Positions 9,063 to 63,880 of a stretch of 64,000 bases of DNA are shown one piece after another. Each line of letters begins with the position of its first letter. The stretch's first letter is position 1. Location of the stretch: assembly GCA_016788665.1 (NCBI GenBank), contig JAEUSF010000006.1:4401-68400 (forward strand). Direction: 5' to 3'. The notes below the pieces were generated by a model that saw only the letters and a list, made by a program, of their open reading frames with translations, searched no databases and was not told where the DNA came from. Origin of the DNA: Candidatus Doudnabacteria bacterium (lineage in GTDB: Bacteria; Patescibacteriota; Doudnabacteria; UBA920). The position numbers and the translations under genes were made by a program.

Positions 9063-9428
9063 TTAGGAAGCAGAAGCGACTTTAACGCTTGGGTGAATGT
9101 TTTGCTGCTCAATTATCCACAAAAGAGAAGTAATAAGGGCATCCAAGCCTGTTACCGCACAGACCCCCCTCACATGTTCACCTACAGTTTCGTAAGCAAA
9201 ATACAGCGCTCTGGCTTGGTTTATGTCCAAAGCCAAAGCATCGGCGACATTCAGCCCCGGGTCCACACCTTCGCAGACTACCACTTGCACAGTATTCCAA
9301 AAAAAACTACTCCAGTCCCCTGTGTGATTGTGTGCAAATACACACTCTACTCCTCTAAAAGCGGAAAAAATCTCGCTCCACAATTTCTTCTCTGCGTCCA
9401 AACTCAGGCCCACAATCGCGATTTTCAT
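9063..9428 (-). CDS. hypothetical protein
   Basis: Start moved to MKIAIVG with GGAGGA SD 6 nt upstream; no confident family assignment. Confidence 0.45.
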   Translation of the reverse strand: MKIAIVGLSLDAEKKLWSEIFSAFRGVECVFAHNHTGDWSSFFWNTVQVVVCEGVDPGLNVADALALDINQARALYFAYETVGEHVRGVCAVTGLDALITSLLWIIEQQNIHPSVKVASAS

Positions 9429-9988: not shown

Positions 9989-11053
9989 TTATTGCTGAAA
10001 GAGCCTTCGAGCCGTTTCAACTTTCTCCCTTAGGCCTTCAGTCTCCTTCTCTTTAGCTTGGAGCAAGCTGCGAAGATTTTCGTTCTCCTGAAGCAGATGA
10101 GTGACCTGTGCGAGCAGATTCTCCATTGCCTGCTGGGAATCTGCAGTTGCCTTTTTGGCTGCCGTTACAGCTTCGGCAAAAGCCGCCGAGGCACTTTGCG
10201 CGAGAACCTGTTCAATTGTCGGGGTGGATGGTTTCGCACCTTTTACCGACCGTGGCATACGAAGCTGAATTCCGCGGCTTTTTTCCAACGTTTTAATCCT
10301 GCCGTACAAACTTGCGTCCGAAATACTACTCCTATTAAACCCCATCGAACGGATTTCGCGGATAACATCCCGCTTGCTGCCCATGTGCCGGTCGTAAATG
10401 GAGCTCAACCCTGCTAAAACATCTTCGAGCCGGGGCCTGCTCATGACGGCAGGCTTCGGTCCCTCTGTTGTTGGTTGCCCGACGGATGTTTCCGGACTTA
10501 GCAAGGCCGGATGCGGTTGTTTTTCATGGGCTTGGTTCAGTCTTTTAGCCCCAGACTGATCAGCCATTGCTACGGTAACGGGCGCGGGTGTATGTTGAAG
10601 TTTCTCAGCATCAGGCTTAGGCAAGCCTACTGTCTTTGTGACCCCACCCAAACTTAAGCAGATGACACCTTTTTTGTCGCCTTGGAAAGATTCGACCATC
10701 CTATGCAAGAACGACGCAGCGTCAACCACCAACATTACGCAACCGGTCTTCTTACTACTAACCAATTTTTCAATGCTGGAAAGGATCTCGTCGCCAAGCC
10801 TCCCATTAACAGCAACAAACTTTGCGTTTGGCGAAAGCTGCGTTACATGCTTAGCCTGGTATACATTCCAGAAGACAACACGCCCATCAAGCTGGGCCTT
10901 GGACTTCTCTACCGCTGAATCATTTGCTCCGACTACTACCATATTTTCGCCGGGCTCGAGTCTGAATTCGAAGGACGTACCCTCGACTGCGGACGTTGCG
11001 ACAGCACTCATATACGTTCCTTGCAAAAAAGACACAAAGCCCGTAAAAGCCAT
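9989..11053 (-). CDS. hypothetical protein, possibly NYN/LabA-like nuclease domain with C-terminal coiled coil; GC-rich
   Basis: N-terminal MVVVGANDS...VMLVVDAASFLHRMV..GVICLSLGG loosely resembles the NYN fold; C-terminal heptad coiled coil; alternative start MSAVATS at 11011 has an AAGGA SD; terminator hairpin 9938-9965 on the minus strand. Confidence 0.4.
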   Translation of the reverse strand: MAFTGFVSFLQGTYMSAVATSAVEGTSFEFRLEPGENMVVVGANDSAVEKSKAQLDGRVVFWNVYQAKHVTQLSPNAKFVAVNGRLGDEILSSIEKLVSSKKTGCVMLVVDAASFLHRMVESFQGDKKGVICLSLGGVTKTVGLPKPDAEKLQHTPAPVTVAMADQSGAKRLNQAHEKQPHPALLSPETSVGQPTTEGPKPAVMSRPRLEDVLAGLSSIYDRHMGSKRDVIREIRSMGFNRSSISDASLYGRIKTLEKSRGIQLRMPRSVKGAKPSTPTIEQVLAQSASAAFAEAVTAAKKATADSQQAMENLLAQVTHLLQENENLRSLLQAKEKETEGLREKVETARRLFQQ

Positions 11054-15619: not shown

Positions 15620-16684
15620 CTATTTTCCAAACTGTCTAACCACCTCTTCTGCTTCGGAGAGGTTTTTAGTTTCCAATAATTTAGCTCTCAGCTCAGAGCT
15701 TCCCTCAAACCCAGTTGCATACGCTTTAAAATGCTTGCGCATAATATAAAAACTTTTTTTTCCACCCAACTTTTCTTCAAACAACTTTGCATGCTCCAGC
15801 ATTATTTTAAGCCTTTCCTCCGCTTGAGGCATATAGCCATCCGGCCGAAAAAGCCAAGGGGTGCCAAAAGCACCTCTGGCTATCATAACGCCGTCGCACC
15901 CAGTCTCCCGAACCCGCCTTAAACCTTCCTCTCGTGTTTTAACATCCCCATTACCTATTATTAAAGTTTTATCTGCTCTTTCTGCCTGCAGTGCATTTCT
16001 TACTTCCACAGCTTTTTTAATTTCTTCCCAGTGGGCAGGGACCTTACTTTTCTCTTGCTTAGTTCTAGCGTGCAAAGTTATAGCAGGTAAATTGTGCTTT
16101 AATAAATACCCAATCCAACTCTCCGTTTCCGGCTTAGTATAACCAATTCTGGTTTTTACGCTGACCGGCAAACTGCCCGCACCCTTTTGTGTAGCTTTTA
16201 TTATTTCACTAGCAAGTTTTGGGTTTCTTATAAGCGCAGCACATGCACCAATACCTATTTCCTTATCCTGCGGACAACCCATATTTATATCTATACCGTC
16301 AAAACCCATACCCGCGACCAACTGGGCCGCCTTATAAAATTTTTCAGGATTCGTCCCCCATAGTTGCACAACTATTGGCCTCTGGTTTTCTGTAAATTCC
16401 AAATCTATTTTAAGCTTTTCAAAACCCACCGGATGCAATAGCCCGTCAACATTTATAAACTCTGTAAACATAACGAAAGGATTGTTACGAGTTACGTGTG
16501 ACGAGTTACGTGTTACATGAGTACTATGCAATGCAAACATTTCACGGAACACAACGTCGGTAACTTCTTCCATAGGAGCAAGAGCAAATAAAGGCTTTTC
16601 CATTCCGGCCCAAAAACCAGGGTTTACGGGTCCTGTTTTGATGCGGAATATAGGAATTATAAAACGGCGCAAAAATTCGAACAT
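15620..16684 (-). CDS. tRNA-dihydrouridine synthase (Dus family)
   Basis: FALAPMEEVTD, VQLWGTNP, FDGIDINMGCP and catalytic-region motifs of the Dus TIM barrel; contains an in-frame heptad-repeat duplication (SHVTRN x2) at 16485-16518. Confidence 0.85.
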   Translation of the reverse strand: MFEFLRRFIIPIFRIKTGPVNPGFWAGMEKPLFALAPMEEVTDVVFREMFALHSTHVTRNSSHVTRNNPFVMFTEFINVDGLLHPVGFEKLKIDLEFTENQRPIVVQLWGTNPEKFYKAAQLVAGMGFDGIDINMGCPQDKEIGIGACAALIRNPKLASEIIKATQKGAGSLPVSVKTRIGYTKPETESWIGYLLKHNLPAITLHARTKQEKSKVPAHWEEIKKAVEVRNALQAERADKTLIIGNGDVKTREEGLRRVRETGCDGVMIARGAFGTPWLFRPDGYMPQAEERLKIMLEHAKLFEEKLGGKKSFYIMRKHFKAYATGFEGSSELRAKLLETKNLSEAEEVVRQFGK

Positions 16685-18149: not shown

Positions 18150-18665
18150 TTATTTGGTTGCTATGGCATTCAGCACATTAACCAAACCACGTAGGTTTGC
18201 TGCAAGTACGTTAACGAATCCGGAAACCGGAGCATTAATAGTACCCACAAGCTGTGCTCTAAGCTGGTCTTTAGAAGGCAAGTCTGCCAAAGCTTCCACC
18301 TGGGACTTGGCAATAACCGCTTTGTCTACAACACCTTCCAAAATTTTTATAGTCTTTATTTCTTTAGCCAAAGACTTAATAGCGCGCGCAGGAGAAGTTT
18401 CGTCTTCCTCGGAAAGAGAAAGAATAACAGGCGTCTTGTAGTCAGACACCTGGCCACTAACTCCGGCTTCTGCCAAAGCTTTTTTTACCAAAGTCAGTTT
18501 ATAAACTTTAGAGAAAACATTTTCTTTTCTTAAAGCTGCCCTAAACTTGGTTATGTCTTTTACAGTCGTGCCACGATATTCTGTAAAAACTATAGACTTG
18601 GCAGCTTTTACCTTGTCGGTAAGCTCACCTAAATCTGTAGTTTTTTGGGATTTTGATTTTGCCAT
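18150..18665 (-). CDS. rplJ: 50S ribosomal protein L10
   Basis: L10 family sequence immediately upstream of rplL, the conserved rplJL arrangement. Confidence 0.9.
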   Translation of the reverse strand: MAKSKSQKTTDLGELTDKVKAAKSIVFTEYRGTTVKDITKFRAALRKENVFSKVYKLTLVKKALAEAGVSGQVSDYKTPVILSLSEEDETSPARAIKSLAKEIKTIKILEGVVDKAVIAKSQVEALADLPSKDQLRAQLVGTINAPVSGFVNVLAANLRGLVNVLNAIATK

Positions 18666-38863: not shown

Positions 38864-39811
38864 TTAATTTTTGACAATTGCCCTAAGTTTAGCGGGCTTA
38901 GATCGAGAGTTTTTTTCAAGTTCTGCCTCGGAAGGAATAACAGGCTTTTTGGTAAGAATTTTTGCCTGGGGATTTTGACCACATATGCACATTGGAAACT
39001 CCGGCGGACAAACACAGCCTTTACTTAGCCCATTAAAATATTGTTTAACTATCCTGTCCTCTAATGAGTGAAAACTTACTACTACAAGCCTGCCTCCAGG
39101 TCTTAAAATATTAAATGCTTTGGGCAAAAACTCTTGCAAATTTTCCAACTCATGGTTTACTGCTATTCTTAAGGCTTGAAAAATTCTTCGGGCACTGTCG
39201 TCGGCTTTATGCTTAAAAGGTTTTGGCAAAGCGTCTTTTATTACCTCATAGAGTTCCCTGGTCTGCTTCAAACTTAATTTATTTAACTTATACTGTGTAA
39301 TCTTTTTAGCTATTAGGCCAGCAAACTTTTCCTCACCAAAATCTTCAAATATTTTTCTAAGCTCCGCTTCAGTTTTCGAATGTAAATAAAAAGCGGCATC
39401 TTCGGGCTGACTCTGGTTAAAACGCATATCTAACGGCTCAGACTTCTGAAAACTAAACCCTCTACCCGATTGATCGAGCTCAAAACTCGAAAGTCCTATA
39501 TCGGCAACTATTCCTGAAATGTTTTCAAAATTATGACTTTTTACAATTTTGTCTATATGTTGGAAATTTCCATGATGCAATACAACCCTATCTGCATTAA
39601 TTTTGTAATTTTGAATTTGTAATTTGAAATTCTCAAGAGCAACCGTATCCAAATCTATACCCAAAACTTTTCCATTCGCTTCCGTATGTTTTAAAATCTC
39701 TAAACTATAACCACCTCCGCCCAAAGTAGCATCTACAAAATTTTCGTCTGAACCAGGCTTAAGGTACGAAATAACCTCTTGTAAAAGGACAGGAATATGA
39801 TCATATAACAT
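38864..39811 (-). CDS. rsmH: 16S rRNA (cytosine1402-N4)-methyltransferase RsmH (MraW)
   Basis: MLYDHIPVLL.. N-terminus, SAM-binding DATLGGGG, and other RsmH family motifs. Confidence 0.9.
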   Translation of the reverse strand: MLYDHIPVLLQEVISYLKPGSDENFVDATLGGGGYSLEILKHTEANGKVLGIDLDTVALENFKLQIQNYKINADRVVLHHGNFQHIDKIVKSHNFENISGIVADIGLSSFELDQSGRGFSFQKSEPLDMRFNQSQPEDAAFYLHSKTEAELRKIFEDFGEEKFAGLIAKKITQYKLNKLSLKQTRELYEVIKDALPKPFKHKADDSARRIFQALRIAVNHELENLQEFLPKAFNILRPGGRLVVVSFHSLEDRIVKQYFNGLSKGCVCPPEFPMCICGQNPQAKILTKKPVIPSEAELEKNSRSKPAKLRAIVKN

Positions 39812-44690: not shown

Positions 44691-46103
44691 TTACACCTCC
44701 TTAACCCTTCCAAACCCCACACTGTCCCTAAATACCTTCCCCGCCTTAAGCACAGGGGTATAAGAAACCGTAAATTTGCCATATTTAGCATTTATAACAT
44801 CTATAGCTATCATAAGAGCGCCTTTAGATGTATGCTTTTTAAACAAAGCCTGTTGAAACACATAAGGCTTTAAATTATCCACAGTAACCCCCACTAGCTT
44901 ACAATTAGCAATAACTTTTTCTGCTTCGAGAAAATTTCTCAAAATTTTCCGGCTTTCACAAAACAAGTCCCTTGCATCAAAAATAGGTTCACCCAAAGTT
45001 ACAGAGTTGCCATAAGAGTTATACTCTCCATCTCTTACATAAGCAACCAAAACATTACCCCACAGCTTCTTCCGCCTAAGCCTTTCAGCCACCATTTCGC
45101 AAAGCTTATACAAAACCGGTTCAAAAAAATCCCGGCCCCTATACTCTTTAGGTAAGGTATACATATGACCAATGGACTTAATAGTTTGGTCATGATGAAC
45201 TTTGGACTTCCAGCTACCATCTAATTTACCCATATGGTGAAGATGATACCCGCTTATACCAAACACTCTCACAAGTCGGCTTAAAGGAAAATCTCGCAAA
45301 TCTTTTAAAGTCCTAATCCCCAACTCATTAAGCCTCTTCTCCTGCCTCCTAGCTATTCCAGGAATATCAGTAAGTTTAAGTTTTTCATATAAATCTTCTT
45401 TAGTAAAATTTAAGAATTTAGAATGACAAATGCAGAATACAGAATTTTTACAAAAACATTCTAAATTCTTAATTCTCAATTCTGCATTACTTATAATTAC
45501 CAACCCATCAGGTTTCTGCATATCACTGGCTATTTTAGCCAAAAGTTTATTGTCCGCAACCCCAATACCGCAGGTTAAATAGTCTCCCACCTCTCTTTTT
45601 ATTCTCTGCTTTATTTCCCAAGCCACCCTCACGGCCTCTTCAAATGGATTAACTGATAGATAATAATCCAACTTTGCCTTATGGAAGTATTTTAGTTGAT
45701 CATTTTTAGATTTTGTAATTTGTATTATTTTTTGAAACTTGTAATTTGGAATTTGTAATTTAATATTACAGCTTGCTGTAATGTCTACGTACGCTTCATC
45801 TATACTTGCAGGCTCAACAAAACTACTATAGTCCCTTAAAACTTTTAAAAACAATCGGTGATAATGCCTATAAGCTTCTGCCCTGGTGTGGGTTAAAATA
45901 ATTTTAGGATAAAGCTTTTTAGCCTCCCACACAGGTGTACCGGTTTTTATACCCCAACGTTTTGCCTCTATACTTGCAGCTATTATTATGCCACCTAAAT
46001 GCTCGCACACACCTAAAGGCTTGCCTCGCCACAACAAATTATCCTGTTGTTCAACCGAAGCAAAATAACTATTCATATCCAAATGAAGAATAACGGGGGT
46101 CAT
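44691..46103 (-). CDS. dinB: DNA polymerase IV (Y-family, DinB)
   Basis: ILHLDMNSYFASVEQ, catalytic SIDEAYVDIT, little-finger domain; contains an in-frame heptad-repeat-derived insertion (LQIPNYKFQKIIQITKS) at 45711-45775. Confidence 0.85.
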   Translation of the reverse strand: MTPVILHLDMNSYFASVEQQDNLLWRGKPLGVCEHLGGIIIAASIEAKRWGIKTGTPVWEAKKLYPKIILTHTRAEAYRHYHRLFLKVLRDYSSFVEPASIDEAYVDITASCNIKLQIPNYKFQKIIQITKSKNDQLKYFHKAKLDYYLSVNPFEEAVRVAWEIKQRIKREVGDYLTCGIGVADNKLLAKIASDMQKPDGLVIISNAELRIKNLECFCKNSVFCICHSKFLNFTKEDLYEKLKLTDIPGIARRQEKRLNELGIRTLKDLRDFPLSRLVRVFGISGYHLHHMGKLDGSWKSKVHHDQTIKSIGHMYTLPKEYRGRDFFEPVLYKLCEMVAERLRRKKLWGNVLVAYVRDGEYNSYGNSVTLGEPIFDARDLFCESRKILRNFLEAEKVIANCKLVGVTVDNLKPYVFQQALFKKHTSKGALMIAIDVINAKYGKFTVSYTPVLKAGKVFRDSVGFGRVKEV

Positions 46104-46106
46104 AGG

Positions 46107-46155
46107 AGTAGTGAGTAGTGAGTAGTGAGTAGTGAGTAGTGAGTAGTGAGTAGTG
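46107..46155. repeat. (AGTAGTG)x7 perfect heptanucleotide tandem array abutting the dinB start codon
   Basis: Counted directly: seven exact copies 46107-46155, immediately 5' of the ATG at 46103 (minus strand). Confidence 0.95.
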
Positions 46156-46212
46156 CTACGGATCCCGTTACTACCGTCAACTACCCGCTACTTATTACCT
46201 GCTTTTTTAGCT

Positions 46213-46261
46213 AAACGTTCGTTCACCTTGTTATTTTATGACTATAATAAAAATTGTGCAA
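46213..46261 (-). promoter_or_regulatory. dinB promoter (TTGCAC-17-TAAAAT) with a GAACGAACGTTT LexA-box candidate just downstream of the -10
   Basis: Minus strand -35 at 46261-46256, -10 at 46238-46233, box at 46224-46213; same ACGAACGT core as upstream of lexA. Confidence 0.45.
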
Positions 46262-50371: not shown

Positions 50372-52084
50372 TTATTGGATTTTGATATCCAAAATTTTTA
50401 ATTTTAATTTTTTTTGACCATTCCAACTATCTTCCAATAGCTCGCACACGGCTTGAACTTTTGACCCATTTAAAATATTAGCAATTTTTGACCCCATGTT
50501 AAACCCAATGGCTGAAAAAGTTTTATTTTCTTTTTGCAACTGAAGCTGAACATGCTTACTCCCTTGTCCTACAATTTTATGCGAAACCACATCCAAATCC
50601 CTTATTAAAAATTTAGGAGCCGGATTTCCTACACCATAAGGCTCCAAAATCATAAGAGCAGATGCCGTATATAAATCAAGCTCAGAGACCAAAAGCTCTG
50701 CTTCTATTTCAACCGAAGCAATCAAGTCATCGGGTCGTAAATTACTTTTGGTAAACTCCAGCACTTTAAGATAAAAATTTTCAAAATTACCCGCGTGAAG
50801 CGTTAAACCTGCTGCCTGCTTATGACCCCCAAACCTTACCAAATTTTCTGACGCATACTTTAAAGCATCAATAATACTAAACTCGCCTACAGTTCGAGCA
50901 GAACCCGTGGCATAATCCCCTTCTTTAGACAAAACTATTGTTGGTTTGTTAAATTCTTCTGCAATTTTACCCGCTGCCAGACCCACCACGCCCTTGCTCC
51001 ACCCTTCTCCCATAAGTACCAAAAAATTTCTGTCAGCAATTTTCTGCGCCTCCTCTCGCGCTTCACTCATAATCCGCTCAGTCAATTCCTGTCTTCTCTT
51101 GTTTACAGTTTCCAAATACTCCGCCTTTTCACCTGCAGCAATTGGATCCTCTTCCAACAAGACACCCAAAGCCACGTCTGCATGTTCTAGCCTTCCTGCG
51201 GCATTCAAACGAGGTGCCAGAACGAAACCCAAAGTATACGCATCGGGTTTTTTTGTTTTAAAATCCAAACCCGCCTTGTTACATAGAGCCTTCAGACCTT
51301 GCCATTTGGTTTTTTCCAAAACCTTCAAGCCATACTTCACCAAAATCCTGTTTTCCCCTAACAGCTCGTGACAATCCGCAACTGTGCCTATGGCCACCAA
51401 ATCCAAAAGCCACTTTTCCCAACCCGGTTTTAATTTAGGATTTAAAATTTCAGATTTAAGATTTTGCAAAACCGCAGAAGCGAGTTTAAAGGCCACACCC
51501 ACGCCGGTTATGTCCCTATACGGATAGGTGTCCGAAGGATTTTTCGGGTTTATGAGGGCAAAAGCCTGGGGGGTAGGACCAATAATTTCGTGATGATCGG
51601 TAATAATAAAATCAACACCATTCTCCAAACACCAATCCGCCACATCACAAGAATTAGTTCCGCAATCTACAGTTATTATTATTTTTGTCCCGCTCTCTTT
51701 TATTTTTAAAACAGCATCCAAATTTACTCCATAACCCTCCGTAAACCTGTCAGGTATATAGCTATAAACATTTGCCCCCAATTCTTTAAATGCCAGCCGT
51801 AAAACCGCATTAGCTGTTACCGCATCAGCATCGTAGTCACCATAAATACAAATTTTTTCGCCCAGTTCGATGGCTTTCCAAATTCGATTTACCGCTTTTT
51901 CCATATCCAAAAATAAAAACGGAGCATTAAGCCCCTCGTACTTCGGATCCAAAAATTCTTTTACTGCCTCCTCGTCGCGTATTTTACGATTATACAAAAT
52001 TTTCGCAAGTACAGAAGGAAGATTTTCATAAACTTTTAAATCTTCTGCAGAAACATTTTCTTTTAATTTCCAGATTTTTTGCAT
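50372..52084 (-). CDS. recJ: single-stranded-DNA-specific exonuclease RecJ
   Basis: DHH motifs (IYGDYDADAV..., TDHHEI) and DHHA1 GGHKQAAG. Confidence 0.9.
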   Translation of the reverse strand: MQKIWKLKENVSAEDLKVYENLPSVLAKILYNRKIRDEEAVKEFLDPKYEGLNAPFLFLDMEKAVNRIWKAIELGEKICIYGDYDADAVTANAVLRLAFKELGANVYSYIPDRFTEGYGVNLDAVLKIKESGTKIIITVDCGTNSCDVADWCLENGVDFIITDHHEIIGPTPQAFALINPKNPSDTYPYRDITGVGVAFKLASAVLQNLKSEILNPKLKPGWEKWLLDLVAIGTVADCHELLGENRILVKYGLKVLEKTKWQGLKALCNKAGLDFKTKKPDAYTLGFVLAPRLNAAGRLEHADVALGVLLEEDPIAAGEKAEYLETVNKRRQELTERIMSEAREEAQKIADRNFLVLMGEGWSKGVVGLAAGKIAEEFNKPTIVLSKEGDYATGSARTVGEFSIIDALKYASENLVRFGGHKQAAGLTLHAGNFENFYLKVLEFTKSNLRPDDLIASVEIEAELLVSELDLYTASALMILEPYGVGNPAPKFLIRDLDVVSHKIVGQGSKHVQLQLQKENKTFSAIGFNMGSKIANILNGSKVQAVCELLEDSWNGQKKLKLKILDIKIQ

Positions 52085-59094: not shown

Positions 59095-59336
59095 TTCCTT
59101 TTATATTGATTTTCTCCTGTCACCATTTTACGTCTCACCACCATCTGCCTATTAAACTCAGGCTCCTTTAAACCATACCCTTCTGCTAATATCAAATAAT
59201 CCACCCGTGAATTGCATTGTCTTAACTCTTCTTCTAATTTGGTCAAAGCCTCTTCGGGTTCTTTTGCTCTTGCAGAAACCCACTCGACTATAATACTTTC
59301 TGCGTACGAGCTATTAAAATTTTCTTCTTCAGTCAT
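59091..59336 (-). CDS. small acidic hypothetical protein between the two tkt halves
   Basis: 81 aa; overlaps tktC by ATGA; no family recognised. Confidence 0.35.
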   Translation of the reverse strand: MTEEENFNSSYAESIIVEWVSARAKEPEEALTKLEEELRQCNSRVDYLILAEGYGLKEPEFNRQMVVRRKMVTGENQYKRK

Positions 59337-59380
59337 AATTCCTAATTCCTAATTCTAAATCTTACATCTTACATCTTACA
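59337..59380. repeat. two adjacent heptad arrays, (AATTCCT)x2.5 then (ATCTTAC)x3, filling the intergenic gap between the tkt N-subunit stop and the small ORF start
   Basis: Read directly. Confidence 0.9.
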
Positions 59381-60232
59381 TTACTTATGCTCGCTATCTA
59401 TCTGACCTCTTAAAGTCCTTAATTCCTCTAGAGCTACTTTTGCCTGCTCCTTATTTGGCGGACTACCGTGCCATTTAAAATCACCTTCCATAAAATCCAC
59501 GCCCTTCCCAGGTATAGTATGCGCAATTATCACCGTTGGTTTTTCATAAATGGCTTTTGCTTCCATACATGCGTTTATAATAGCTTGATGATTATGTCCA
59601 TCCACCTCCAAAACATGCCAATTAAAAGCTTCGTATTTGGCTTTTAAATTATCTAAAGGCATAACATCCTCTGTGTAACCGTCTATTTGTATATTATTGC
59701 GATCAATTATTGCCGTAAGATTATGAAGTTTGTACTTTCCTGCAAACATAATCGCTTCCCAAACCTGACCTTCCTGCTGCTCGCCGTCAGACATAATTAA
59801 ATAAACCCTCTGAGACTTTTTTCTGTCCATATAAAGTCCGTAGGCCATACCAACCGCCTGACTTGCTCCTTGTGCTAAGGGTCCTGAAGAAGTTTCTATC
59901 CCAGGCAAGCTTAAATTATGCGGGTGGCCGTGCAAACGGGTTCCAAATTTTCTTAAAGTTTTAAGTTCATCTTTCATAAAATAACCTGCCTCCGCCAAAC
60001 TTGCATATAAAACGGGACATATATGCCCACACGACAAAACTAACCTATCACGTTCTTCTAGCTTGGGTCTTTTTGGGTCATGATTCAGGACACTAAAATA
60101 CAAACAAGCAAAAATATCGGCCATACCTAAAGGCCCGGCACTATGTCCGCTACCTGCTTCTAAAAGCATTTGCACTATATCTTGCCGTATATCGTTGGCT
60201 TTGTATTTTATTTCGTTTATAGATAACTTCAT
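59381..60232 (-). CDS. transketolase, N-terminal (TPP-binding) subunit
   Basis: GSGHSAGPLGMADI..., GDG-type TPP/metal-binding region. Confidence 0.85.
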   Translation of the reverse strand: MKLSINEIKYKANDIRQDIVQMLLEAGSGHSAGPLGMADIFACLYFSVLNHDPKRPKLEERDRLVLSCGHICPVLYASLAEAGYFMKDELKTLRKFGTRLHGHPHNLSLPGIETSSGPLAQGASQAVGMAYGLYMDRKKSQRVYLIMSDGEQQEGQVWEAIMFAGKYKLHNLTAIIDRNNIQIDGYTEDVMPLDNLKAKYEAFNWHVLEVDGHNHQAIINACMEAKAIYEKPTVIIAHTIPGKGVDFMEGDFKWHGSPPNKEQAKVALEELRTLRGQIDSEHK

Positions 60233-60846: not shown

Positions 60847-61482
60847 TTAATTGGCATTCAACTTTTCAAAAGCCTCTTTTGGGTTTTCAGTTTTTACAAT
60901 AGCACTACCCACAACAATTAAATCTGCACCTGCCTCTTTTATACTTTTTATATTAGTTTCATTGACGCCACCGTCTATTTCTATTATAGCATGCGGCAGT
61001 AAAGCTTTAAGCTCTTTGATTCGTTCGAGAGTTTCCGGAAAAAAAGGAGAGCCTTGAAACCCAGGCTTAATTCCCATTAACTGAAAATTTTTCAAAAATA
61101 CGTAATCCGTCAAATATGACACAGGAGTGTCTAAATTCAAACAAACAGCAGGCTCTAACCCTAAATCTTGAATTTGCTTTAGGGCTTGGGTTAATAAATT
61201 CTTATTGGAATAAGCCTCATAATGCAAAACTACCTTTTTGAATCCACAAATCTTGTAATCTAAAAAATCTTTAGGCTCTTCGCACATAATATGAGCTTCC
61301 CAAATAAAGGCAGGATTTAACGCATCAATTTCAGCTACGGGAAGTAAGGTGTTGGGAACAAATTTTCCATCAGCAAAGTCCACCTGGATTCTTTCGACAC
61401 CAGGAATTTTTGTAACCAAAGAAGAGGTGGCAGAAAATTTTTCTTTAGTTTGCTCTAAAATTGCCGGAATAATAATAGCCAT
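60847..61482 (-). CDS. rpe: ribulose-phosphate 3-epimerase
   Basis: VDFADGKFVPN, ..HIMCE.., IEIDGGVN TIM-barrel motifs. Confidence 0.85.
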   Translation of the reverse strand: MAIIIPAILEQTKEKFSATSSLVTKIPGVERIQVDFADGKFVPNTLLPVAEIDALNPAFIWEAHIMCEEPKDFLDYKICGFKKVVLHYEAYSNKNLLTQALKQIQDLGLEPAVCLNLDTPVSYLTDYVFLKNFQLMGIKPGFQGSPFFPETLERIKELKALLPHAIIEIDGGVNETNIKSIKEAGADLIVVGSAIVKTENPKEAFEKLNAN

Positions 61483-61487
61483 ATTTC

Positions 61488-61943
61488 CTAATTCCTATTT
61501 TCTAATTCTATAGAATTAATCTTTTCTATTCTCTTCACATGTCTGGCACCTTCAAAACCCGTCTCAATCCATAAATCCACAGCTCTCATAGCTTCTTCGG
61601 CTGTTATAAAATGCGCGCCCAAAGAAATCACATTAGCATTGTTATGCTGGCGAGAAAGCTTAACAACTTCCTCCGGACCTCCATAAAAGACCGCAGCTCT
61701 TACACCCTTTGCTTTATTAGCAACTACGGCTTCTCCCTGCCCGCTATAACCTATGACAATACCCATACTACCAGCTTTGTGCCCAACTTTTACCGCACAC
61801 GGATAAACAAAGTCAGGGTAATCGTCTTCGTGTTTGTATTCAAAAGGCCCGCAGTCTTCTACAGACTGCCCCGACGTCTTTAAATGGTCAATTAACTTGT
61901 TTTTCAATTCAAATCCTGCGTGGTCTGAGGCGATATAGATCAT
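61488..61943 (-). CDS. rpiB: ribose-5-phosphate isomerase B
   Basis: MIYIASDHAGFELK.., GIVIGYSGQG.., RpiB/LacAB family. Confidence 0.85.
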   Translation of the reverse strand: MIYIASDHAGFELKNKLIDHLKTSGQSVEDCGPFEYKHEDDYPDFVYPCAVKVGHKAGSMGIVIGYSGQGEAVVANKAKGVRAAVFYGGPEEVVKLSRQHNNANVISLGAHFITAEEAMRAVDLWIETGFEGARHVKRIEKINSIELENRN

Positions 61944-61997
61944 TTTAGCTATTAGCTAGTAGCAAGTAGCGTGTAGCACTGCTAGCTACTAGCTACT
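61944..61997. repeat. heptad array TTTAGCT-ATTAGCT-AGTAGCA-AGTAGCG-TGTAGCA followed by inverted copy GCTAGCTACTAGCTACT, abutting the rpiB start
   Basis: Read directly; AGTAGC units are related to the AGTAGTR family. Confidence 0.85.
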
Positions 61998-62006
61998 CCC
62001 TACAAA

Positions 62007-62690
62007 CTATAGATTAATAATTTTATTAAAATAACTTGGAACCAAGCTGGCACCACCCACCAATAAACCATCCACATTCCTTTGTGCCAAGAACCCTTGG
62101 GCATTACTTGGGTTAACACTACCTCCATAAAGAACTTTTTCTACACCATAGCGGTTTTTTATAAACAAAGCAATTTTTTCAGTATGATCTGGCGTAGCCG
62201 TTTTACCACTCCCAATTGCCCATACCGGTTCATACGCAACCACAACTTTTTCGGCCTCCAGCCCTGCCAAACCTAAGTCTAACTGATTTTTTATAATATC
62301 GGTCACCTCCATGTCGTCCTGCAAAACAGTTGTTTTGTACCCAACACATAAAACAGGAACAATATTGTTCGCCAAAGCAAGCCTAATCTTGGCGTTTACC
62401 ATATGATCATCATCACCCGCAAAACGTCTTTCACTATGCCCAACCAAAACATACTTAATTTTAAAATTTTTAAGTTGTAAGGGGCTGACCTGCCCGGTGA
62501 AAGCACCTTTCTCTTCCCAAAAACAATCTTGCGCACCTAAATTTGGATACTTCACCGAAGACAAAAAGACATGAGGCGGACACAATACCACAGTATTTTT
62601 TTTTGTCTTTTCTATTAAAGAAGTAAGCTTAACAGCTTCTTTTAAACTTACCGGATTTAATTTCCAATTTCCAATTATTAATTTTTTCAT
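62007..62690 (-). CDS. tpiA: triosephosphate isomerase
   Basis: IIGNWKLN, catalytic VGHSERR and AYEPVWAIGSG motifs. Confidence 0.9.
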   Translation of the reverse strand: MKKLIIGNWKLNPVSLKEAVKLTSLIEKTKKNTVVLCPPHVFLSSVKYPNLGAQDCFWEEKGAFTGQVSPLQLKNFKIKYVLVGHSERRFAGDDDHMVNAKIRLALANNIVPVLCVGYKTTVLQDDMEVTDIIKNQLDLGLAGLEAEKVVVAYEPVWAIGSGKTATPDHTEKIALFIKNRYGVEKVLYGGSVNPSNAQGFLAQRNVDGLLVGGASLVPSYFNKIINL

Positions 62691-62785: not shown

Positions 62786-62820
62786 CTTACTTCTTACTTC
62801 CTAATTCTTCATTTACCTAA
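62786..62820. repeat. heptad array CTTACTT-CTTACTT-CCTAATT-CTTCATT-TACCTAA overlapping the galT stop codon
   Basis: Read directly. Confidence 0.85.
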
Positions 62821-63827
62821 TCCCCTCTCAAAAACTTTGCAGTTACTTCAGGCGGTATGGGGTTAACAGGAATCCCTGTCGCATACTCAAAACCTGCCCA
62901 TGTGGTAATACGAGGAAATATAGTCAAATGCCACCTGAAAGCCTGTTCATTATAAGTCTTACTCTCTTTTCTTAGAGGCATATTGTGAACATAAAAATTC
63001 AAAGGTGGATCTGAAAGTTTTGTATACAGCTGTCCCAAAGTCACCTTTAAAACAAAGGATAAATGTTTTATTTCATCTTCCGTCATATCTTCAAACCTGG
63101 CTGACTGCCTTTTTGGAATTATCCAAGTTTCAAACGGCTGACGCGAAGCATAAGCAGACAAAATAACAAAATGATCGCTCTCGTGCAAAATTCTATCTTT
63201 AACTTTTAATTCTTCCTTTAAAATATCTCCGTAAATATCCGTACCGTGAATACCGTAATAATGCTGACAGCCCATTATTTCGTTATGAATGTGGGGTGGC
63301 ACTATAGGGGTTGCTAAAAGTTGGTAGTGCGGATGCACAATCGAAGCGCCTGCGTCGCGCCCATGGTTATGAAATAACTGCACATAAGCCAATTCCCCAT
63401 GCCTCGAAAGCTCATTAATTCTTCTTATAAAAACTTTTAAAGTACTTTCGACTATTGAAATAGACTGCAGAGCAACAGGCTCGTTGTGTTTTCTTGTTAT
63501 TATAACTTCATGGTCTCCGTCACCCGAATGAGAAAAATAAAATTCTTTATGACTATAAGCAGTTGCGTGCTCTAAAGCCGCAAACTTATTAGGAATTATG
63601 CGAATCTCCCACTGATCAGATCTTAAATCGAGCAAATTTCCCTCCTGGTCAAACCTTTCTATTTCCGGATTTAGACTTTCATTACCAGGACAAAACACGC
63701 AAGTCTTATCATGCTCAGGTACACCATGCATTACGCTATATGTTTTGTACTCATCAGGCCTCTTATTCCTACCAGGAGCTATAAGCACCCAAGATTTGGT
63801 TATTGGATTTTGCCGAAATTCTGACAT
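62817..63827 (-). CDS. galT: galactose-1-phosphate uridylyltransferase (HIT superfamily)
   Basis: Zn-binding Cys/His N-terminal region and HPHYQ (HxHxQ-type) active-site motif. Confidence 0.7.
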   Translation of the reverse strand: MSEFRQNPITKSWVLIAPGRNKRPDEYKTYSVMHGVPEHDKTCVFCPGNESLNPEIERFDQEGNLLDLRSDQWEIRIIPNKFAALEHATAYSHKEFYFSHSGDGDHEVIITRKHNEPVALQSISIVESTLKVFIRRINELSRHGELAYVQLFHNHGRDAGASIVHPHYQLLATPIVPPHIHNEIMGCQHYYGIHGTDIYGDILKEELKVKDRILHESDHFVILSAYASRQPFETWIIPKRQSARFEDMTEDEIKHLSFVLKVTLGQLYTKLSDPPLNFYVHNMPLRKESKTYNEQAFRWHLTIFPRITTWAGFEYATGIPVNPIPPEVTAKFLRGD

Positions 63828-63830
63828 ATA

Positions 63831-63880
63831 AGTAGTAAGTAGTAAGTAGTAAGTAGTAAGTTTGATACCTACTACTTACT
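63831..63880. repeat. (AGTAGTA)x4 heptad array abutting the galT start, with inverted copy TACTACTTACTA (63868-63880) forming a potential hairpin over the ruvX stop
   Basis: Read directly. Confidence 0.9.

Follow-up and report, generated by a model that had tools for sequence, protein, structure and literature searches.

The window analyzed in this study, a stretch of 64,000 nucleotides from a Candidatus Doudnabacteria contig (JAEUSF010000006.1), has a GC content of approximately 40% and carries nearly all of its genes on the minus strand. It contains tandem arrays of 7-nt units (heptads), which lie in intergenic regions and, in frame, within genes for conserved enzymes. Heptad tracts in dus (15620-16684, 354 amino acids; Pfam Dus, 3.5e-61), rsmH (38864-39811, 315 amino acids; Pfam MraW methylase, 2e-102) and dinB (44691-46103, 470 amino acids; Pfam IMS, IMS_HHH_1 and IMS_C) had been reported by an initial annotation. 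Their positions and encoded peptides were reproduced by Tandem Repeats Finder, which gave the copy numbers and match values cited below, and by translation. A fourth gene, the RecJ open reading frame (ORF) at 50372-52084, was found to harbor a heptad tract as well. All four genes are on the minus strand. For comparison, the window was combined with 80 orthologous dinB loci (labels L001 etc.), giving 81 sequences with a total of 1.37 Mb. Shuffled sequence served as control for the whole window, codon-shuffled genes for the coding sequence.

Period 7 is the only tandem period enriched in the window. Exact tandem runs of at least 12 nt were detected with period 7 (n=5) and period 14 (n=3) and with no other period. 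Requiring 17 of 21 matching positions, 14 tracts were obtained for period 7 compared to zero to two for the periods 5, 6, 8, 9 and 10, and at 21 of 28 positions 13 period-7 tracts remained, compared to none in the shuffles. Coding sequence taken by itself contained seven arrays of period 7, 14 or 21 (codon-shuffle mean 1.7), four of which had a score of at least 39 (mean 0.33), while all remaining periods together yielded 11 arrays versus 11.5 in the codon shuffles, i.e. no excess. The period-7 tracts within genes thus exceed their controls approximately 4- to 12-fold. The same preference was seen in the 1.37 Mb, where 165 arrays of period 7 contrast with 14 to 74 for each of the periods 6 and 8 to 12. 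If the periods 14 and 21 are included, there are 245 arrays with more than 100 distinct units, the commonest of which occurs seven times. By a crude greedy-ORF gene call, 113 of them are intergenic, 109 lie inside coding sequence and 23 at gene edges. Since about 88% of the DNA is coding according to this call, the arrays are enriched roughly 7-fold in intergenic regions. All arrays of more than eight copies are intergenic. The assumption that arrays in genes are more degenerate than intergenic ones was not supported (mean match 87.5% versus 84.9%, p=0.19), and a further period-7 match at 62659-62686 had to be dismissed as a repeat insertion, as it corresponds to the conserved GNWKLN N-terminus of triose-phosphate isomerase (TpiA, ORF 62007-62690).

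The dus tract (16484-16516, minus strand) has 4.7 copies of period 7 with 80% match and can also be read as 2.2 copies of period 14 with 94% match (16483-16513, minus strand). Its coding-strand heptads, AACACGT AACTCGT CACACGT AACTCGT, agree with the unit NACNCGT given in the initial annotation and may likewise be written (GTAACNN)x4.7. The tract, which is not AT-rich, translates to STHVTRNSSHVTRNN and contains the peptide (S/T)HVTRN(S/N) in two copies. Ortholog alignment revealed a lineage-specific insertion at this position (16475-16522, minus strand; residues about 55-70), between the motifs FREMFA..S and VMFTEF. Seven Dus orthologs are uninterrupted there and read ...(K)YGKP-DVMFTEF, which represents the ancestral state. 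At this hot spot the window protein possesses about 16 extra residues, its relatives between 0 and about 60, and Dus has three more variable hot spots. In dus of the closest relative, L081, both HVTRN-coding copies are present, and a 30-nt palindrome CGCCAG..CTGGCG is located between them (about 10100-10160).

Compared to solved structures, DinB of the window (NIKLQIPNYKFQKIIQITKS) has two extra segments, residues about 110-158 and 206-237. Site 1 (45648-45767, minus strand; residues about 113-152) follows the catalytic SIDEAY strand, and site 2 (45393-45491, minus strand; residues about 205-237) is the palm-thumb linker. The heptad tract of site 1 (45712-45761, minus strand; period 7, 66% match, 8% indels) is composed of AAATTAC/AAATTCC-type units and encodes KLQIPNYKFQKIIQITK. 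Of the approximately nine heptads originally assigned to it, only about seven degenerate copies (7.4) were recovered. It does not form a hairpin (fold z-score -0.26). Site 2 contains a second tract that had been overlooked (45455-45488, minus strand; AGAATNN units, peptide AELRIKNLE) and a hairpin at 45404-45478 (minus strand) with a fold energy of -20.7 kcal/mol and a z-score of -2.5. The left arm of this hairpin is (NNAGAAT)x4 (Tandem Repeats Finder 45458-45483), the right arm an inverted array (ATTCTNN), and a perfect 16-nt inverted repeat (TTAAGAATTTAGAATG / CATTCTAAATTCTTAA) is present. Site 2 thereby has the same architecture as the intergenic hairpins described below, but inside a gene.

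In distant Doudnabacteria and Patescibacteria, site 1 of DinB is short, with mutually similar, NIRGYKDGVLQKLDP-like sequences of about 15 amino acids compared to 41 in the window, and site 2 consists of a well-conserved GLVVVRPEDKxxL. By contrast, both sites are occupied by hypervariable inserts, reaching about 80 amino acids, in a clade of 34 sequences to which the window belongs. The pooled DNA of these inserts showed autocorrelation values of 0.375 at lag 7 and 0.339 at lag 14, whereas 0.236 was determined for the conserved parts of the same genes. In the AlphaFold2 model, the DinB core reaches a pLDDT of about 90, but the residues 116-149 and 212-228 remain below 50 and lack secondary structure, so both inserts are predicted to be disordered loops. 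Compared with its closest relative in DinB (L001, 80% DinB identity), the window has a site 1 of equal length that differs by point changes and reshuffled units; at site 2, the left arm has been kept and the right arm swapped for a palindrome. The assertion that the heptad tracts of the three genes are lineage-specific insertions is thus supported by ortholog alignment for Dus and DinB; for RsmH it could not be upheld.

The tract of rsmH (39602-39631, minus strand; period 7, 4.3 copies, 78% match) comprises the heptads AATTTCA AATTACA AATTCAA AATTACA, which encode NFKLQIQNYK within RsmH (NFKLQIQNYKIN). It corresponds to a helix between the GIDLD and RVVLHHGNF strands (RVxLxxxNF in general form). 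Distant orthologs and the Thermotoga maritima structure 1M6Y possess residues at this position, the only difference being three residues in length. As the initial annotation itself had taken homologous residues in distant taxa to speak against an insertion, this interpretation fails for RsmH. Nevertheless, the lag-7 autocorrelation of the segment was 0.431 in heptad-rich genomes, whereas heptad-poor ones gave 0.291 and the remaining parts of the gene 0.28, and each heptad-rich lineage carries an array of its own, e.g. (TCAAGAA)3, (AAAATCA)4, (TGTCAAA)3 or (TAAGGGC)3. Judged from these alignments, the rsmH tract is a heptad-derived overwrite in place without net insertion. The same can be said of RecJ, whose tract (51433-51464, minus strand; AAATCTN/AAATTTT units) had escaped notice and encodes LQNLKSEILNPKLK. 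According to the ortholog alignment, the site reads ALLSNHEKVIAQKKIEPSEHNPEW and is conserved in heptad-poor relatives, is hypervariable in heptad-rich ones, and was overwritten at roughly constant length.

The tracts of dinB and rsmH resemble each other strongly. Between 45739-45763 in dinB and 39603-39627 in rsmH, 23 of 25 nucleotides are identical, while no match is expected by chance. This 25-mer exists in only two copies in the 64 kb, and within the window the peptide motif LQIxNYK is confined to DinB and RsmH. The near-identity on which the idea of a common seeding by the same repeat DNA had been based is therefore real, and such a seeding is plausible, albeit unproven. CAAATNN-type units, encoding KFQISN-like peptides, recur at both the dinB and the rsmH site in five relatives (L024, L011, L009, L018 and L007). 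Moreover, the arrays start at conserved AAT-rich flanking codons, which specify CNIK (TGTAATATTAAA) in dinB and ENF (GAGAATTTC) in rsmH. Because these units recur elsewhere and both flanks are AAT-rich, independent local seeding appears about equally plausible as copying between the two sites.

The occurrence of arrays is strongly linked to a clade. All 34 genomes with an insert at DinB site 2 contain arrays (2.9 per 10 kb), whereas 44 Doudnabacteria and Patescibacteria loci without a DinB insert have 0.84 per 10 kb overall, most of them none. Relatives of similar GC content (34-42%) that are devoid of arrays keep a short conserved sequence at the hot spots. From this clade restriction at similar GC content, it can be concluded that the coding tracts belong to a genome-wide phenomenon and are not a compositional accident. 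In agreement with the initial annotation, they stem from the period-7 phenomenon that also gave the intergenic arrays, are specific to the lineage and are tolerated in frame. On deposition, the label 'uncultured Candidatus Saccharibacteria bacterium' (binchicken/SRP co-assemblies) was given to many of the closest relatives (L001-L006 and others). This label is probably generic or wrong, since DinB, RsmH and the gene order place the respective sequences with the Doudnabacteria.

Comparisons of close strains demonstrated how quickly the arrays change. Within clusters of DinB proteins of at least 90% identity, the differences between full-length variants of about 95% identity are nearly confined to the hot spots; in one cluster, there is a 9-amino-acid indel along with clustered substitutions at site 2, in another one site 1 has been replaced wholesale. 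The strains L002 and L082 share 92% nucleotide identity over a 17-kb alignment but carry unrelated units at their common RecJ, DinB and RsmH sites. At the RecJ site, (AAATCCG)n with the palindrome CCGCCAGCTGGCGG in L002 is opposed to (GAGAAAA)n in L082, at DinB site 2 (AAATWTC)n to (AAATTCG)4(AAATCTT)4 with gaps of 6+21 nt, and at a second RsmH site CCAAGAATCAAGATCTAAG to (GTTATCA)n. Besides unit replacement, indels of 21 nt and 27 nt were found at the arrays of strain pairs. No out-of-frame allele was seen among the close strains compared. Hence, turnover of the arrays is much quicker than that of the coding sequence around them and always preserves the frame.

Some of the variable sites additionally contain small palindromes. 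The 14-nt palindrome CCGCCAGCTGGCGG (translated PPAGG) is nested in two different heptad arrays of L002 (3859-3872 and 10379-10392), and variants of it exist in the rsmH segment of L002 and L023 and in dus of L081, the host arrays differing in unit and gene. It has the appearance of a tiny mobile element directed at heptad arrays, its mobility being deduced from a handful of copies. GC-rich perfect palindromes were observed at DinB site 2 in L011, L013, L020 and L031, at DinB sites 1 or 2 in L016, L018, L019, L025, L030, L032, L008 and L020, and in rsmH of L002 and L011. At the hot spots of these relatives, they replace heptad arrays or nest within them and are translated in frame into peptides of the type GHPCAAQGCP (from AAGGGGCATCCTTGTGCAGCACAAGGATGCCCCTT), HPHPGPLPEGEG or GTCATTCCGAGCGA; their fold z-scores go down to -11. 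At the 3' end of dinB (about 9104-9165), L082 differs from L002 by an insertion of 61 nt that is flanked by a direct duplication of about 18 nt (GGNAGNGTTAAGGAAGTT). The insertion comprises a TAG stop codon and a GCCCGCC/GGGCGGG hairpin and cuts off the C-terminal extension DNDGDISIRPGKSFKR of the sister strain. A small palindrome enclosed by a long duplication is also what characterizes the L081 dus site, and the doubled HVTRN of the window may be such a duplication without a palindrome.

The non-coding heptad features of the window include the 5' leader of dinB (46106-46195, minus strand). A perfect (ACTACTC)x7 (46106-46155) and a preceding degenerate inverted array of ..GTAGT units form a hairpin (-26.4 kcal/mol, z-score -2.0), and 2 nt separate the end of the perfect array from the first ATG of the dinB ORF at 46103. 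The true start may be an ATG 27 nt downstream, as the DinB protein of the source record is nine residues shorter. Upstream of dinB, at a distance of approximately 100 nt, there is a LexA/Cheo-box-like motif (GGTGAACGAACGTTTAG, GAAC-N4-GT(A/T)T; 46211-46227, minus strand). It was also detected upstream of dinB in 11 relatives (L003, L005, L009, L012, L013, L015, L016, L019, L028, L036 and L046). Since it has been kept across the dinB orthologs, the motif suggests that dinB is under SOS regulation in this lineage of the candidate phyla radiation (CPR). Between the LexA-like box and the ATG, the leader takes the form of a heptad hairpin in the window and in many orthologs; the hairpin retains its position, and its unit is different in every genome. 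Two more hairpins are found in front of ORFs. One (63829-63880, minus strand; z-score -3.7) consists of (CTACTTA)x4.7 (63829-63861), abutting the ATG of ORF 62817-63827, and an upstream inverted (TAAGTAG)x2. The other (61945-61997, minus strand; -29.6 kcal/mol, z-score -3.2) has a GTAGCTA arm and a GCTACNN arm and abuts the ATG of ORF 61488-61943. In all three leaders, the right arm ends 0-4 nt before the called ATG. Two adjoining perfect arrays, (GTAAGAT)x3 followed by (TTAGGAA)x3 (59336-59381, minus strand), occupy the whole spacer between the stop codon of ORF 59381-60232 and the ATG that follows, and a further start-proximal array is situated at 61482-61508.

Such arrangements are common in the 1.37 Mb. 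An inverted two-unit partner within 70 nt was identified for 37 of 84 intergenic arrays (1 and 12 in the controls) but for only 5 of 66 coding arrays. The tracts of dus, rsmH and dinB site 1 have a single orientation and are unstructured (z-scores -0.26 for dinB site 1, +1.3 and +1.2 for the other two). Of 136 non-coding arrays, 58 (43%) end at most 25 nt upstream of an ORF start, many of them at 0-4 nt. Pairing of a Shine-Dalgarno (SD) with an anti-SD sequence is not a general property of these leaders, as an SD-like tetramer occurs in only 8 of the 58 start-proximal arrays; repeated hairpins of the SD/anti-SD-like kind were noticed in a few cases (upstream of dinB in L019 and L013, and in the window at 59336, (TTAGGAA)n, and 61482). 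An Rfam scan of the window returned two tRNAs only and no RNA family overlapping the arrays. By analogy with the proposal made for TAACTGA repeats, the start-abutting arrays may exert translational control.

Taken together, the coding tracts are probably the survivors, within genes, of a lineage-specific simple-sequence-repeat process with period 7 that acts across this Doudnabacteria genome. The specificity for 7 nt, the restriction to one clade, the hypervariable hot spots that differ between lineages and the replacement of units between strains are direct observations. To account for them, we infer that the units are generated by slippage, that the recurrence at the same sites is due to selection and not to targeting, and that the encoded peptides have no function. 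Units of 7 nt would expand, contract and homogenize by slipped-strand mispairing (concerted evolution), and an array would at times gain an adjacent inverted array and thus become a hairpin. Short intergenic spacers and 5' leaders hold most of the arrays. Since translation passes through each of the three frames along an array within a gene, only units free of stop codons on the sense strand could survive there, and changes in length would be limited to multiples of 3 nt, typically three units equaling 21 nt or seven amino acids. Persistence would further require that the protein tolerates arbitrary sequence, which may apply to loops at the surface, linkers between domains and one helix exposed to solvent. 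The outcome would be either additional residues, as in Dus and at both DinB sites, or an overwrite at roughly constant length, as in RsmH and RecJ, and small GC-rich palindromes could additionally enter or replace the arrays. Selection for permissive loops together with AAT-rich seed codons in the conserved flanks may explain why the same sites are hit repeatedly.

Several points weigh against this interpretation. A metagenome scan for copy-number variants of the perfect (GAGTAGT)7 array in the dinB leader, which could have been direct evidence for slippage, yielded no hits with the unique flanks of this array. Slippage alone explains neither the preference for 7 nt nor the inverted partners of 37 of the 84 intergenic arrays nor the array ends located 0-4 nt before start codons; such features point to a functional role or to a mechanism of greater specificity. 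Recombination or active rewriting could likewise have caused the full exchange of units between strains, and the 23/25-nt identity of the dinB and rsmH tracts could reflect copying between these sites. A pattern of five conserved and two variable positions per heptad, which seemed evident on visual inspection, was not confirmed: the share of mismatches at the two most variable positions was 0.87 versus 0.84 in the null model, and their adjacency was weak (45/103 versus 1/3 expected) and not significant. An active, lineage-specific rewriting in place, for instance by hairpin-primed or template-switching synthesis of a polymerase or repair enzyme, is conceivable but rather improbable. According to this idea, the start-abutting hairpins including the dinB leader would serve a genome-wide control of translation or mRNA stability and the coding tracts would be collateral writes.

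The dinB and rsmH tracts might also be two copies of a mobile micro-element, i.e. of heptad DNA or a small hairpin element that moves between sites by copy and paste, in the manner of Rickettsia palindromic elements, MITEs or cyanobacterial small dispersed repeats. We regard this view, which is in essence that of the initial annotation, as unlikely, even though it would account for their identity beyond chance, for KFQISN-type peptides in several proteins and species and for the hairpins of DinB site 2 and of many intergenic arrays. The small palindromes do act as if they were mobile, given the presence of CCGCCAGCTGGCGG in two arrays of L002 and of its variants in RsmH of L023 and Dus of L081, the takeover of heptad arrays by GC-rich palindromes at the hot spots, and the 61-nt insertion with its duplication of about 18 nt at the 3' end of dinB in L082. 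The more than 100 heptad units, however, have no common consensus, ends or flanks. Likewise, the 25-mer occurs only twice in 64 kb, the tracts of dus, rsmH and dinB site 1 do not form hairpins, and inverted partners are rare in genes (5/66). The AAT-rich conserved flanks of the dinB and rsmH arrays permit local seeding, and RsmH and RecJ were overwritten at constant length.

That the tracts are functional elements, be it as selected peptides such as interaction motifs or flexible linkers, as contingency loci that turn genes on and off by copy number or as regulatory RNA hairpins reaching into coding sequence, is highly doubtful. The peptides are not conserved even between strains that are about 95% identical, the DinB inserts are predicted to be disordered, the tracts are short and imperfect (66-94% match), the host genes dus, rsmH, dinB and recJ are housekeeping genes, and every variant observed is in frame. 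In favor of a function, slippage by a single unit of 7 nt would shift the frame. In many orthologs, a heptad hairpin holds its position between the LexA-box-like motif and the ATG of dinB, and the proximity of 58 of the 136 non-coding arrays to start codons recalls the TAACTGA repeats of Beggiatoaceae (PMC4679880), but a role of intergenic hairpins would not by itself account for the coding tracts. Hardly any credence can be given to chance low complexity, by which AT-rich codon usage (K, N, I, F, Q) would mimic a 7-nt periodicity. The rsmH and dinB site-1 tracts are indeed AT-rich and degenerate (78% and 66% match), and the period-7 match in TpiA is nothing but a conserved motif. By contrast, the dus tract is not AT-rich, the four high-scoring coding arrays are opposed to 0.33 in codon shuffles with other periods showing no excess, and relatives of the same GC content (34-42%) have conserved sequence without arrays at the same sites.

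If the tracts are products of a period-7 repeat process, as favored here, their closest known counterparts are the bacterial heptanucleotide repeats, i.e. the cyanobacterial STRR and the TAACTGA families. According to the account of Mrazek (2007) given in PMC4679880, heptanucleotides are the commonest long simple-sequence repeats in bacteria with repeats of 5-11 nt, and polymerase slippage has been proposed as their origin. TAACTGA direct repeats occur in Beggiatoaceae, Cyanobacteria and Bacteroidetes and were proposed to regulate translation in Beggiatoaceae (MacGregor 2015, PMC4679880). These heptamers are mostly intergenic, often directly upstream of starts where Shine-Dalgarno sequences are rare, and occasionally within ORFs (PMC4679880). 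The Doudnabacteria arrays agree with them in the tandem 7-nt units above chance, the dominance of this period and the sporadic, lineage-restricted distribution. Shared are also the mostly intergenic location, often a few nucleotides before a start codon without an obvious Shine-Dalgarno sequence, and the occasional presence in ORFs, where 7-amino-acid peptide repeats are encoded. Unlike in the STRR and TAACTGA families, no unit prevails among the more than 100 found in 1.37 Mb, many arrays pair with an inverted array to form hairpins, and arrays recur in internal loops of housekeeping enzymes and not mainly at termini or in hypothetical ORFs. The units CCCCAGT, TTGGTCA, CAACAGT and TAACTGA are absent from the tracts of the window and none of them dominates the 1.37 Mb, where a TAACTGA-type rotation was encountered only twice in the array census. 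The reversed TAACTGA unit (GTTATCA/CAGTTAT) was noted in L003 (19404-19436), L046 (6706-6747) and L082 (about 18547-18575). Furthermore, in contrast to the known heptanucleotide repeats, the host belongs to the CPR/Patescibacteria, for which full-text literature searches did not retrieve a description of heptad repeats.

Other systems share only some of these properties. Rickettsia palindromic elements (Ogata et al. 2000, 2002; reviewed in PMC10969869) are about 100-150 bp in size and form defined families with a conserved encoded peptide. Like the inserts in DinB and Dus, they reside in frame in conserved genes of metabolism or housekeeping that are unrelated to each other, where the protein fold can accommodate them, and they have hairpin potential, which is here seen at DinB site 2 (z-score -2.5) and in the GC-rich palindromes of the relatives but not in the dus, rsmH and dinB site-1 tracts. 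However, the inserts described here consist of short arrays whose 7-nt units vary and share no family consensus; a defined sequence of about 100-150 bp at many loci was not found, the inserts differ between orthologs and strains, and several sites are overwrites. Phase-variable contingency repeats and the heptads have in common a unit length that is not a multiple of three, and gain or loss of a single unit would therefore shift the reading frame. Unlike contingency loci, the tracts are imperfect (66-94%) and short (at most 7.4 copies), they reside in Dus, RsmH, DinB and RecJ and not in surface, virulence or restriction-modification genes, and strains differ only in frame; a long perfect tract toggling the frame was not found. 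Elhai et al. are said to have reported in 2008 that small dispersed repeats of 21-27 nt are nested in tandem heptamer repeats of Nostoc punctiforme. The likeness lies in tiny palindromes inside heptamer arrays of differing unit, here CCGCCAGCTGGCGG in the two L002 arrays. On the other hand, phylum and element sequences are different, the host arrays are often in protein genes, and mobility is deduced from few copies. Thus, the Doudnabacteria heptads are an example, from a new phylum, of a known type of bacterial simple-sequence repeat and not a new kind of system.

Two aspects deserve attention: enzyme loops of a reduced genome are rewritten rapidly and repeatedly, and hairpin leaders abut start codons. 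A streamlined CPR genome retains a fast, genome-wide repeat process that reshapes loops of essential enzymes between strains of 92-95% identity. KFQISN, GLRAKGI, GHPCAAQGCP and similar low-complexity inserts in proteins of Patescibacteria derive from repeats and need to be masked before phylogenies, orthology and domain calls or structure predictions are made; at the same time, they mark loops that tolerate arbitrary sequence. Sister lineages with and without arrays provide a natural comparison for the question of why 7 nt is favored in some bacteria, and the hairpins abutting start codons are a candidate mechanism of translation control in organisms that are unculturable.

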